Shown piece after piece: positions 20,810 to 52,309 of a stretch of DNA of 64,000 nucleotides. The stretch is from Raja brachyura (lineage: Eukaryota). Both the position numbers and the translations under genes were made by a program. How positions within the stretch are numbered: position 1 is the first letter of the stretch; each line of letters begins with the position of its first letter. The notes beneath the pieces are model-generated. The model was not told where the DNA came from. It saw only the letters and a list, made by a program, of their open reading frames with translations, and searched no databases. The DNA lies in the NCBI GenBank assembly GCA_963514005.1, contig OY740800.1, positions 41,602,001-41,666,000 on the forward strand. Direction: 5' to 3'.

Positions 20810-21103
20810 CACGAGGACATGACTTTAGAATTAAGGGACAGAGGTTTAGGGGTAACATGAGGGGGAACTTCTTTACTCAGAGAGTGGTAGCGGTGTGGAA
20901 TGAGCTTCCAGTGGAAGTGGTGGCGGCAGGTTCGTTGGTATCATTTAAAAATAAATTGGATAGGCATATGGATGAGAAGGGTATGGAGGGTTATGGTATG
21001 AGTGCAGGCAGATGGGACTAAGGGAATAAAGTTGTTCGGCACGGACTTGAAGGGCCGAGATGGCCTGTTTCCGTGCTGTAATTGTTATATGGTTATATGG
21101 TTA
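20810..21103 (+). mobile_element. CR1 LINE 3' end, different subfamily with (TTATATGG)n tail
   Basis: End of ORF 20482-21021: SRGHDFRIKGQRFRGNMRGNFFTQRVVAVWNELP...GRWD; tail ttatatggttatatggtta. Confidence 0.85.
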
Positions 21104-21490
21104 GTTCTTCAGGGAAGGAAATTAGTCATTCTGGCACAACCTTGGACATTTGATCTGCATGGACATGTTGGGCCAGAGGATCTGTTTCCATGCTGCATGG
21201 CGGTATGACTCAATGACTCTCTTTGCGACTCCAGACTAACATTCCAGCACATTACAGTGAGCCCTCGTTATAATGGACCACGGATAGAGGGGGGGGGGGG
21301 GGGGTGTTGTCCGTTATTGCTGATAGTCCGTTATAATCAAGTAAGGTATTATCATCGAATGTAGTTGAAACCAAGAACTGCAGATGATGGTTAATGCACA
21401 AAAGGACACAAAGTACTGGAGTAACTCAGCGGGTCAGGCAGCACCACTGGAGAACAGTCTGCTGAGTCACTCCAGCACTTTGTGTGATTT

Positions 21491-21740
21491 CACCTTAAAA
21501 CTAGGCACCAATGCTGCTGGTCTGCACCAACAAGTCCGTCTTCACCCACTGCGCGATCCAGTTCACATGGAGGTTGTTGCAGCTCACGTTGTAGCCCCTG
21601 GCCAGCAGCGCTTTCTTCAGGCCGCTGCCAAAGACAGGACATGCTCAGTCAGCCTGGGGCTCCCTCCCCTCTCATCAGCTGCCATTTCTTCCTGTAGGCC
21701 GTCGCTTTGTCTGCTCCCCACTCTACCTCCGCCTCCTCCT
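21491..21740 (-). pseudogene. Linker histone H1-like pseudogene fragment, left arm
   Basis: 21620->21501 translates LKKALLARGYNVSCNNLHVNWIAQWVKTDLLVQTSSIGA*, preceded across a 2-nt shift by PRLTEHVLSLAA and followed by FKV. Compare the H1 globular domain [24 protein letters not shown]...LVSKGTLVQTKGTGASGSFKL. Confidence 0.75.
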
Positions 21741-21857
21741 CCTTCTCCCCTGCAGACGCCGACATCTTCCAAGGTGGAGTATGTTGGTTACTCTGGGGGA
21801 GAAGGAGGAGGAGGTGGAGGTGGGGGTGGGGGAAGAGTACGAGTGGACAGAACTATA

Positions 21858-22085
21858 GGAGGAGGAGAAGCAGGTAATGGTGTAAAAGAGAGCAGACAAA
21901 GCAACAGCCAACAGAAAGATGCAGCAGCTGGTGAAAGGGCAGGGATCCCCATAGTGACCTAGCATGTCTTATCATTGGTGGCATCCTGAAGAAATAGCTG
22001 TCCCCTGGGGCTACAACGTGAGCCGCAACAACGGCCGCGTCAACTGTACCGTGCGGTTGGGGAAGAAGGGGGTAATGTTGGAAGC
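21858..22085 (+). pseudogene. Linker histone H1-like pseudogene fragment, right arm
   Basis: PIVT*HVLSLVA / LKK*LS / GYNVSRNNGRVNCTVRLGKKG (from 22009); reverse-complement homologous to the left arm. Confidence 0.7.
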
Positions 22086-22739
22086 CGGGGCTGTAAGCGT
22101 CCAGGAAGCTGGTGCGCACCAAAATCTGTTATAAAGGGTCCATTAAAACTATGGTTTACTGTATTTTGTTTCCTCCTAGCTATTCTCTGAAAAAGTTACT
22201 CAGTTGAAGGGCAATTAGAAATTGCTGATAAATGACGGGTTTGCGAGTGATGGCAACATCTAGTGAATACATAAAATGTGACTTTTAGCAAGGGTGGAAA
22301 TAAAAGTTATTGTGGTCGCTAACTTGCACATATTAACTGACAAGATGCTACTAAAGACTCTGATGGGAACAACAGAAAACTGATGAATTTGCAATGATAA
22401 AATGCTATTGAATTGCCACGGCTGCCTGAAAGTCTGCGTGCAATGCCAAGTAAAACGGAGAAATCCTCACTAAACTTTACACTGGGTTTTGAGCAGAAGC
22501 TGGAGTCCATTCTTCCTGGAATGAAGGTAATCCAGAAACTACATGGGCACAGTTGCAGACGTAAACGTTACACACCATTTGAGCACTGGAGTTTCAATTT
22601 CCATTGCAACACACCTCTGGATACTACAGGTTAACTTTGGATCTCTGCTATCATTACAATGGACATATATTAAAAATGTTATGCTTTTGCTTGCTTGGGA
22701 AAAGAGGTATTTGACAATCATGAACTCAAACCAAGCATG

Positions 22740-49006: not shown

Positions 49007-51120
49007 TAGAAACATAGAAACATAGAAAATAGGTGCAGGAGTAGGCCATTCGGCCCATCGAACCTGCACCGCCATTCAATGTGATCATGGCTGATCATCC
49101 AACTCAGTATCCCGTACCTGCCTTCTCTCCATACCCCCTGATCCCTTTAGTCACAAGTGCCACATCTAACGCCCTCTTAAATATAGCCAATGAACTGGCC
49201 TCAACTACCTTCTGTGGCAGAGAATTCCAGAGACTCACGACTCTCTGTGTAAAGAATGTTTTCCTCATTTCGGTCCTAAAGGAATTCCCCCTTATCCTTA
49301 GACTGTGACCCCTTGTTCTGGACTCCCCCAACATCGGGAACAATCTTCCAGCATCTAGCTTGTCCAACCCCTTAAGAATTTTGTAAGTTTCTATAAGATC
49401 CCCCCTCAATCTTCTAAATTCCAGCGAGTACAAGCCGAGTCTATCCAATCTTTCCTCATATGAAAGTCCTGACATCCCAGGAATCAGTCTGGTGAATCTT
49501 CTCTGTACCCCCTCTATGGCAAGGATGTCTTTCCTTAGATTTGGAGACCAAAACTGTACGCAATACTCCAGGTGTGGCCTCACCAAAACCCTGTACAACT
49601 GCAGTAGAACCTCCCTGCTCCTATACTCAAATCCTTTCGCTATGAATGCTAACATACCATTCGCTTTCTTCACTGCCTGCTGCACCTGCATGCCTACTTT
49701 CAATGACTGGTGTACCATGACACCCAGGTCTCGTTGCATCTCCCCCTTTCCTAATCTGCCACCATTCAGATAATAGTCTACCCTCATGTTTTTGCCACCA
49801 AAGTGGATAACCTCACATTTATCCACATTATACTGCATCTGCCATGCATCTGCCCATTCACTCAGCCTATCCAAATCACCCTGCAGCCTCCAAGCATCCT
49901 CCTCACACCTAACTATACCCCCCAGCTTGGTATCATCTGCAAATTTGGAGATGTTGCATTGAATTCCCTCGTCCAAATCATTAATATATATATTGTAAAT
50001 AGCTGGGGTCCCAGCACTGAGCCTTGCGGCACCCCACTAGTCACTGCCTGCCATTCTGAAAAGGACCCGTTTACTCCTACCCTTTGCCTCATGTCTGCTA
50101 GCCAGTTCTCTATCCACATCAATACTGAACCCCCAATACCATGTGCTTTAAGTTTGTATGCTAATCTCTTATGCGGGACCTTGTCGAAAGCCTTCTGAAA
50201 GTCTAGATATAACACATCCACTGGTTCTCCCTTATCCACTCTACTAGTTACATCCTCAAAAAATTCTATCAGATTTGTCAGACATGATTAACCTTTCGTA
50301 AATCCATGCTGACTTTGTCCAATGATTTCACCACTTTCCAAATGCGCTGCTATCCCATCTTTAATAACTGACTCTAGCAGTTTCCCCACTACCGATGTTA
50401 GACTAACTGGTCTGTAATTCCCCGCTTTCTCTCTCCCTCCTTTTTCAAAAAGTGGGGTTACATTAGCTACCCTCCAATCCTCAGGAACTACTCCAGAATC
50501 TAAGGAATTTTGAAAAATTATCACTAATGCATCCACTATTTCTGTGGCTACCTCCTTGAGTATTCTGGGATGCAGACTATCTGGCCCTGGGGATTTATCG
50601 GCCTTCAATCCGTTCAATTTACCCAACACCACCTCCCGGCTAACCTGGATTTCACTCAGTTCCTCCATCTTATTTGACCCCCGTTCCACTGCTATTTCCG
50701 GCAGATTATTTATGTCTTCCTTAGTGAAGACAGAACCAAAGTAGTTATTCAATTGGTCTGCCATGTCCTTGTTCCCCATGATCAATTCACCTGTTTCTGA
50801 CTGCAAGGGACCAACATTTGTTTTAACTAGTCTCTTTCTCTTCACATATCTATAAAAACTTTTGCAGTCAGTTTTTATGTTCCCTGCCAGTTTCCTTTCA
50901 TTATCTATTTTCCCTTTCCTAATTAAGCCCTTTGTCCTCCTCTGCTGCATTCTGAATTTCTCCCAGTCCTCCGGTAGGCTGCTTTTTCTGGCAAATTTGT
51001 ATGCCTCATCTTTTGTTTTTTTACTATCCCTGATTTCCCTTGTTATCCATGGATGCACCACCTTACCCGATTTATTCTTTTGCCAAACTGGTATGAACAA
51101 CTTTTGTACTTCATCCACCA
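49007..51120 (-). mobile_element. Young CR1 LINE, 5'-truncated ORF2 (reverse transcriptase), inactivated
   Basis: Three consecutive ORFs carry KSPGPD, NYRPVSLTS, LDFQKAFD, GVPQGSVLGP and FADD. One in-frame TAA (50288-50290) and one frameshift in a TA run (~49985-49993). (TTCTATGT)n tail; possible 6-bp TSD gtttca (49001-49006, 51121-51126). Confidence 0.97.
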
Positions 51121-52309
51121 GTTTCAAGACCAGTACTCAATTATATGACCACAATGAGATAGCAAAAGTATCTTATCCCTGTATTCTTGAAGTTACAATG
51201 ATTGAGGTGATCAATTTTCGGCTCCGAGTGGTAATAGCTGCTAATTATCCCAAAAGATTTCTCATGGTCATCATGCTTGATAATTTGATGCATCACTTAC
51301 AATCCTCAATGTCCTTGTTATATTGTAGTGCACCAGAGATTTGCCACTCAGACCCGTTTCCAAAGATCATGCTTCTTGTTGTGCTTTGGTCCACTTCTAT
51401 TTCCTAATCTTCTCTGAGTTACTGCAGTGGTGTAAGTACTGTGGTAGAACTTAGTAAGAATCTGTAAGATAAACAATCTGTATGTGTAAAAGGTACTAGA
51501 ATTGTTTAGGTTTTACTTTGTGGTGATGGAAATGCTCAAGAAACTCAAAAATATGTAGATTTTATTCTGCTTCAACTGTGATGCCTCAGTTACATAGTTG
51601 GTGGTCAAGACCCTGGATGATCGTGGCCATTGTGAATTAAAAGATTTTCAGTAGGGATGTGATTCTGTATTTCAACTCAGTAGAGGAATGTAGGCCCTTT
51701 ACAGTGAGATACTGTTGATTCTTCTCATCCAATCTTGCTGTACATGTGTACAACAAACCCAGTCTCATGAAAAATTTGATTCCTGCCAACTCTGCCATAA
51801 ATCATCAAATGTTTGCACTGGAATTTGTTGACTGGGAATCACTGTGTTTGCTGCTTAATCCGACTGCCTTGTCAATCTTCAGTTTAGTTTATTATTATTG
51901 TCACATGTACTGAGGTACAGTGAAAACATTTAGTTGTGCGCTATCCAGTCAAAGAAAAGACTATACAATCAACAGCATTCAGAGTTTTTGCTGTTCTTTA
52001 ACATGATTCAACTGAGTGTATTATCAGCCAAAAAAACATTTCCATTGCTTCCATGAATGACTTACATACTGCATTGAACACCCCAAGGCTGCTAATGTGA
52101 ACTGTCTGCACTTGAGCCATCATTTTGCCCAATTTTCTTGCCTCCAGACTCCTGTACTGTTCACCTTTTCAATAGTTAGTGTGCTTCCATGTACATTTAA
52201 ATGCAGCCTACTTGTCTTTTTATTATACTACTATTATTTGCCTTCCCCTTATCTTTTATTGATTTGGTGGTGTCTGTGCAAATATACCAACTAACTTTAT
52301 ACCCAGAAC

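Follow-up and report, generated by a model that had tools for sequence, protein, structure and literature searches.

The window analysed here, a 64,000-nt stretch of the Raja brachyura genome located at C20:41,602,001-41,666,000, contains at positions 21255-22161 a short DNA transposon whose interior reads, in two opposite directions, like a linker histone gene. This raises the question of whether a gene fragment fell once into an old element or was captured and carried about by a transposon family, and, in the latter case, whether the element found in the window is the one that made the capture. The evidence presented below makes it probable that a decaying, non-autonomous pogo/Tigger family spread an inverted and broken H1 fragment, and that this family is likely to have received its cargo from a second transposon family and not from a gene.

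Architecture of the element

The CAGT and ACTG termini with TA duplications described in a sequence-only reading are exact: the window sequence gives TA-CAGT...ACTG-TA boundaries at 21255-22161, a length of 907 bp, and 25-bp terminal inverted repeats (TIRs) beginning with CAG. We refer to these ends as shell A. The parts of the element are listed here; shell C is a second carrier of the same cargo and A2 an H1-free sister of shell A, both described below, and P0015 is a Rhinoraja "histone H1.5-like" protein.

21253-21254, no strand: left TA target-site duplication, from the sequence; TA precedes 28 of the 37 shell A ends recognised in loci L001-L030, the remainder having mostly TG or CA
21255-21355, plus strand: shell A left end, with a 25-bp TIR (21255-21279) and a subterminal region bearing a repeated GTTATAA-type motif
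21364-21454, plus strand: Penelope-like terminal-repeat piece
21455-21485, minus strand: small palindrome I4, a short copy of the preceding piece in inverted orientation
21490-21505, plus strand: 16-bp relic of shell C sequence, which in shell C flanks the Penelope-like piece on both sides in the manner of a target-site duplication
21504-21771, minus strand: left H1 arm, frameshifted, covering a P0015-type H1-like gene from its N-terminal tail through most of the globular domain
21768-21778, no strand: palindrome centre TCCA-AGG-TGGA, a 4-bp stem with a 3-nt loop, at donor codons 5-8 by alignment to P0015
21775-22067, plus strand: right H1 arm, which lacks the same 34 nt as the left (~21985/21986)
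22068-22116, plus strand: GC-rich repeat tract, common to the H1-free sister subfamily A2
22117-22161, minus strand: shell A right end, a subterminal region and 25-bp TIR (22137-22161), similar to the end upstream of a 550-aa transposase frame at C1:47.65 Mb
22162-22163, no strand: right TA target-site duplication, from the sequence

A 39-bp loss from the Penelope-like piece of this copy has removed, among other bases, the hammerhead-like core seen in the consensus. The 34-nt deletion of the left arm falls at ~21620/21621, and the right arm carries changes specific to shell A, namely a duplication of ~61 bp, a 1-nt deletion and a 3-nt deletion.

No host gene was detected in the 64-kb window by Pfam, where matches occurred in 4 of the 120 longest of 256 frames and were all reverse-transcriptase related, in a search that short exons would escape. 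A LINE with broken reverse-transcriptase frames occupies window positions 49107-51136 on the minus strand. The palindrome element is found at the same insertion site in other organisms, with contigs spanning both junctions in two of them (organisms B and C) and the right junction in three (organisms D, E and F). A 289-bp insertion at window positions 20813-21101 is absent from organisms B and C and is therefore younger than the H1-palindrome element.

A damaged H1-like gene in both arms

The interior is indeed an imperfect inverted repeat, with 159 of 214 columns identical in the window copy (74%, E 3e-34) and arms paired as 21606-21748/21858-22000 and 21536-21601/22004-22069. The left arm had been drawn too short and continues to the centre at ~21771. 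When 21491-22090 is folded as RNA, z-scores of -17.4 (plus strand) and -16.9 (minus strand) are obtained, equalled by none of 100 shuffles.

The peptides quoted in the earlier reading are present in the translation, and the homology to H1/H5 that it proposed is recovered by a custom profile and by the family consensus, but not at the cut-off of the Pfam Linker_histone family. None of four single frames from the window copy reached any Pfam family; two of six frames from other copies touched Linker_histone, both below the cut-off, and no intact H1 frame with a globular domain above it was present among the cargo frames and the consensus, while the control protein P0015 scored 56.9 bits. An HMM built from 20 H1 proteins matched the left arm at E 3e-8 and the right arm at E 3e-4, and the family consensus is 88-90% identical, over 125-145 nt, to two H1-like genes of the same genome.

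A deletion between TEHVL and SLAA, thought at first to be shared by the two arms, proved to be mistaken, as the arms continue as VLS(V/L)AAA. Both arms instead lack 34 nt (11 codons and one base) between VLSVAAA and LKK, and two more frameshifts in the N-terminal part are common to both. These shared deletions indicate that the two arms derive from one damaged gene copy, in support of the suggested sequence of events in which a single H1-like gene was captured, deleted and then duplicated in inverted orientation. In the consensus of 38 copies 237 of 248 aligned bases agree between the arms (~96%), so the 74% identity of the window copy reflects its age.

The cargo is the 5' half of an H1-like gene orthologous to P0015. 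Three in-frame cargo segments agree with P0015 at 59 of 65 residues; the next protein agrees at 50, and L047 and L048, paralogues in the skate genome itself, at 47. Proteins resembling P0015 are on record for several sharks and for a stingray, and none was seen from two other named skates with paralogues among the 17 matches of a word-based search, which is subject to annotation gaps. The closest named proteins to the H1-like genes of this genome are from skates. The canonical H1 genes (contigs C45, C50 and C55) were rejected as donors, having no nucleotide match to the arms, as were L047, L048 and L050, which match well in the globular part and not at all in the N-terminal tail.

The only trace of the likely donor found in the genome is a frameshifted C-terminal tail at C32:33.83 Mb (33,831,6xx), with E 0.001 genome-wide and E 4e-12 locally, on the contig that also carries the paralogue cluster. 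This tail is followed by a stem-loop resembling those of L047 and L048, which we take to be the histone stem-loop. An intact donor was absent from the 150 of 988 candidates that were scored, from 600 kb of the C32 cluster and from 40 kb around the tail, although a gene missing from an assembly need not have been lost; nor was the donor 5' half found in those 40 kb. A truncated globular-domain pseudogene of the L047/L048 type lies on the opposite strand, 3 kb from the tail (C32:33,834,650-33,834,931). The clustered H1-like genes (C32:35.09-35.69 Mb; C25:37.56 Mb) are single-exon genes with long arginine/lysine-rich tails, and their distant matches include H1t and a protamine-like protein. We found no paper on their expression.

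A dispersed family with pogo-like ends

In a DNA search of the 2.7-Gb genome, all 40 candidates scored out of 4422 were dispersed copies, 66-78% identical to the window copy. The TIR is matched at 175 places genome-wide with at most one mismatch, and a 28-nt arm motif at 410 places with at most two; the controls gave 0 in both cases. With 37 of 97 aligned arms passing the two-mismatch threshold, the motif count corresponds to ~1,100 arms and at least ~500 elements, which is a lower bound because the calibration set was picked by similarity. The cargo was thus mobilised, as had been suggested, and these hundreds of dispersed copies exclude a one-off insertion. A shell A consensus of 1004 bp was built from 38 copies (29 from the DNA search and 9 from the TIR search, with L030 omitted as a near-duplicate of L025), from which the median divergence at non-CpG sites is 12.6%. 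The window element is one old, decaying copy of a dispersed, non-autonomous family of pogo/Tigger type.

Shell A does not always carry H1. Among 70 of the 175 TIR-anchored loci, 19 have H1 arms, 23 belong to A2 and 28 are other or broken. The H1-free sister A2 consists of A's left end, its own Penelope-like repeat unit, a GC-rich interior and A's right GC-rich tract, and has a divergence of 15.1%, from 8 copies only. Shell A elements match A2 to the left of the repeat's end and to the right of the cassette, and match C in between. The GC-rich A2 interior contains a splice-donor-like motif, GCAGGTAAG, and may represent a captured first exon. Shell A is found with at least three interiors other than the H1 one (L083, L101, L102, L104, L107, L110; L082/L105; L109/L303/L311/L312; L321).

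A source for the mobilising activity is suggested by a broken transposase at C23:15.03 Mb (L364), situated between an A-left end and a match to the A-right subterminal region. An open frame of 550 codons at C1:47.65 Mb (L367:3939-5588), with which it shares 74-77% identity, has CENP-B_N, HTH_Tnp_Tc5 and DDE_1 all above cut-off and is preceded by an A-right-like end after TA (score 41, 0 of 1000 shuffles); the left end of shell A is the counterpart of the 3' end of the transposase-bearing element. Because the presumed first catalytic Asp position reads Val in the 550-aa frame, and because no A-type end was found downstream, leaving one terminal repeat, this frame appears to be a relative or a domesticated copy and not the active driver.

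The ends common to shell A and a CENP-B-like DDE transposase group shell A with pogo/Tigger-type elements, and the Tigger-like identity first assigned to the transposon is supported by the TA duplication, the 25-bp TIRs and the matching transposase ends. "Pogo-like" is nevertheless the safer label, because "Tigger" is polyphyletic in a study of pogo within IS630-Tc1-mariner (PMC7325037). The pogo/Tigger group of that study has the same TA duplication, short TIRs and a partner transposase with CENP-B_N, HTH_Tnp_Tc5 and DDE_1; the H1 family differs in being non-autonomous and laden with cargo. TcMar elements are reported to have expanded in skates, to 3.28% of the genome compared with 0.14% in sharks (PMC12361510).

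A second carrier of the cassette

A match to P0015 with unfamiliar flanks (L116) led to a second family carrying the same cargo. This family C (L174-L196, e.g. at C4:14.957 Mb) comprises 23 aligned copies of ~1.06 kb, with TIRs unlike those of A, TA before 18 of 24 ends and a median divergence of 13.3%. A and C are nearly alike throughout the stretch that begins with the Penelope-like piece and ends with the right arm, so that the cassette common to both consists of the Penelope-like piece and the H1 palindrome. The 30 loci anchored on cargo have A ends in 19 cases and C ends in 6, with neither recognisable in 5. The C left end shows only a resemblance, of ~80%, to the ends of family B (described below), and no transposase with shell C's own ends was present among 30 DDE_1 and 26 HTH loci. 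Bases following the left arm, which had been read as H1 "SFKVK", are shell C sequence; a search for the undeleted form gave 0 matches.

The right end of shell C is the TATA box and 5' UTR of the donor, inverted and facing the palindrome. Its alignments with the TATA/5' UTR regions of three paralogues score 42-56, where shuffles reach at most 36. The C arms are without A's stop, 1-nt deletion, 3-nt deletion and 61-bp duplication. In C the Penelope-like piece lies between two copies of the 16-bp sequence, and A has the inner copy only.

A unit related to the Penelope-like piece (76% over 96 nt) lies behind a GIY-YIG-like frame in L338, where the GIY-YIG match (E 0.001) is below cut-off. Letters of a putative hammerhead core are visible by eye in the Penelope-like consensus, and the Rfam hammerhead had no match in 3 loci; hammerhead motifs of such elements are described as minimal (PMC6155905). 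An apparent transposase inside L300 turned out to be a Penelope-like insertion also present in L157.

Probable origin of the cassette and its proposed transfer between shells

These structures suggest a history in which the H1 fragment would have entered shell C during repair synthesis with several template switches. One switch may have been a fold-back at the 4-bp stem and 3-nt loop near codons 5-8, a stem pieced from two element junctions because the donor 5' DNA was not found. The 16-bp duplication points to a later insertion of the Penelope-like piece into shell C. An H1-free A2 copy, with its own unit of the repeat, could then have repaired a gap on a C copy and so given rise to the H1-bearing shell A, entering the C template through ~125 bp of repeat homology and returning at a 2-bp (TG) microhomology, a length that chance often gives. 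Since A reads as A2, then C, then A2, gap repair of A2 on a C template is the simplest mechanism. A possible TGCG microhomology at this right junction is not upheld, as C reads TGTG. A and C have each dispersed to many TA sites, A presumably mobilised in trans by a transposase family with the same ends. Copies now diverge by ~13% and contain no intact H1 frame, and would be neutral fossils. The placing of C before A is drawn from structure, and the divergences (C 13.3%, A 12.6%, A2 15.1%) agree with it but overlap widely.

The sequence-only reading had placed the capture in the window element's own shell, which would require C to have copied the cassette later. A is the more numerous of the two families, their ages overlap, and the palindrome centre is cleaner and more complete in A, most C copies having lost parts of it through various deletions. 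This history is nonetheless very improbable, and is largely refuted by the donor promoter and 5' UTR, which are in C and not in A; C is also undamaged at four sites changed in A and is the only one of the two shells in which the 16-bp sequence occurs twice. With its donor TATA/5' UTR and less damaged arms, shell C is the likelier site of capture. The label of Pack-type capture consequently holds in that host H1 cargo was mobilised, but not in its simple form, since the capture was likely made in shell C and the cargo also includes a Penelope-like piece. It has further to be asked whether capture and donor loss were one event, in which a shell C element beside the gene took the 5' half away. 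The part missing at the donor locus, from the promoter to ~residue 129, does include the part present in the cargo, from the promoter to residue 113. However, 40 kb around the donor remnant contain no shell C end, and the remnant tail is 35% identical to P0015 across frameshifts where the cargo segments are 91% identical, a difference that faster change of the tail explains either way; we regard a single event as unlikely.

Potential of the palindrome as hairpin RNA

When folded, the consensus cassettes give helices that run for 78-96 bp without interruption, compared with 26 bp in the window copy. Because the young cassette would have formed a near-perfect duplex, small RNAs may possibly have been produced from it in the past, most of all from the promoter-bearing shell C. 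If the hairpin had been kept, arms should match better within a copy than between copies. Arm identity within and between copies is 74.6 and 74.3% in A (22 copies, p 0.25) and 72.6 and 71.8% in C (10 copies, p 0.12), and derived bases common to both arms of a copy are not enriched. There is thus no sign in these 22 A and 10 C copies that pairing was kept by selection or homogenisation, as neutral decay predicts, although such a family-wide average is compatible with a few functional copies. In one read set, presumably of RNA, coverage fell on the abundant repeat piece and hardly at all on the arms, a pattern that carries no weight for or against expression. Most copies are most likely neutral today.

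A stronger proposal is that the palindrome is or was a hairpin-RNA gene, driven in C by the H1 promoter, whose germ-line small RNAs would silence both the donor and the paralogues close to it. The TATA box and 5' UTR that face the palindrome in shell C and the long consensus helices fit such a role, as do the 92-94% identity, over 104-114 nt, of a cargo stretch to L047 and L048, which are living paralogues, the finding of no more of the donor than a frameshifted tail, and a report from maize that captured gene pieces are siRNA reservoirs against their donors (PMC13317346). Yet within-copy pairing shows no excess, the promoter is missing from shell A, to which the window copy and 19 of the 25 assigned copies (about three quarters) belong, the frames of the close paralogues L047, L048 and L050 are still open, and a plain deletion explains why the donor 5' half is missing at its own locus. 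We consider this role unlikely. Slightly less probable again is its furthest extension, in which transposons built an anti-H1 hairpin from a host promoter and coding start and passed it to a second family, and germ-line small RNAs helped to kill a donor variant that is intact in sharks, a stingray and another skate.

An independent capture of an H1-like gene

A further family, B (L065, L066, L068, L072, L077, L119-L132), is ~1.1 kb long and has ends common to several DDE_1 transposase loci, which presumably resemble those of human Tigger4/Zombi. Its cargo extends from the TATA box to the mid-globular part of L048 (83% over 414 nt), is single-armed and is without the 34-nt deletion; at least 10 copies are ~6% from their own consensus. 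Family B captured a paralogous H1 gene separately, and two paralogous H1-like genes were taken up by two different shells. Because family B was found with an H1 query, it speaks for recurrence of H1 capture and not for a preference for H1. Open DDE_1 frames of 550-640 codons, some clustered and with family B ends, are located at C1:10.8-11.1 Mb, C37:12.08 Mb, C38:14.0 Mb, C14:32.57 Mb and C8:69.83 Mb.

Comparison with known gene-capturing elements

Tan et al. 2021 (PMC8277862) report four multicopy Pack-TIR cases in 100 reference genomes and model them as template switching followed by transposition. As in their Pack-TIRs, host sequence is held here within one TIR element at distinct sites on many chromosomes, and the carrier is of the TcMariner type, common among theirs (115 of 370). 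The H1 family works as a multicopy Pack-TIR and departs from the definition only in that no living parent was found in the same genome. It differs in scale, with at least ~500 elements compared with three copies in the example given by those authors, and in the passing of cargo between two shells, which is absent from the parts of that paper examined. As the search of Tan et al. needs 90% identity to a unique living parent, an old H1 family with a dead donor would fail it; their main text contains neither the word "shark" nor the stem "palindrom". We found no description in the literature of H1 capture by TcMar elements or of cargo transfer between two shells, though Dfam, Repbase and the supplements of Tan et al. 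may hold the families. The presence of the same cassette in a second shell is new. The whole is a composite and unusually high-copy animal Pack-TIR.

Multicopy gene capture by cut-and-paste transposons has been reported as rare in animals, and the H1 family has hundreds of copies. Its junctions record a history of capture with fold-back, retro-insertion and cassette transfer to other ends, and, if the transfer is true, a common retro-repeat can act as an adaptor through which cargo changes its transposase. Made1, the source of hsa-mir-548, is likewise a palindromic MITE with RNA hairpin potential (PMC1784062), but the Made1 hairpin is formed by its own TIRs and yields microRNAs, whereas the hairpin of the H1 family is captured gene sequence and is predicted. 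In plant Pack-MULE and Pack-TYPE elements, as here, captured fragments are usually pseudogenes, and they can supply siRNA against the donor (PMC13317346); the H1 family belongs to another superfamily and kingdom, its cargo is an inverted duplication, and it is known from DNA alone. With a donor that is seemingly dead in this genome, it makes the plant idea of conflict between fragment and donor testable in a vertebrate.
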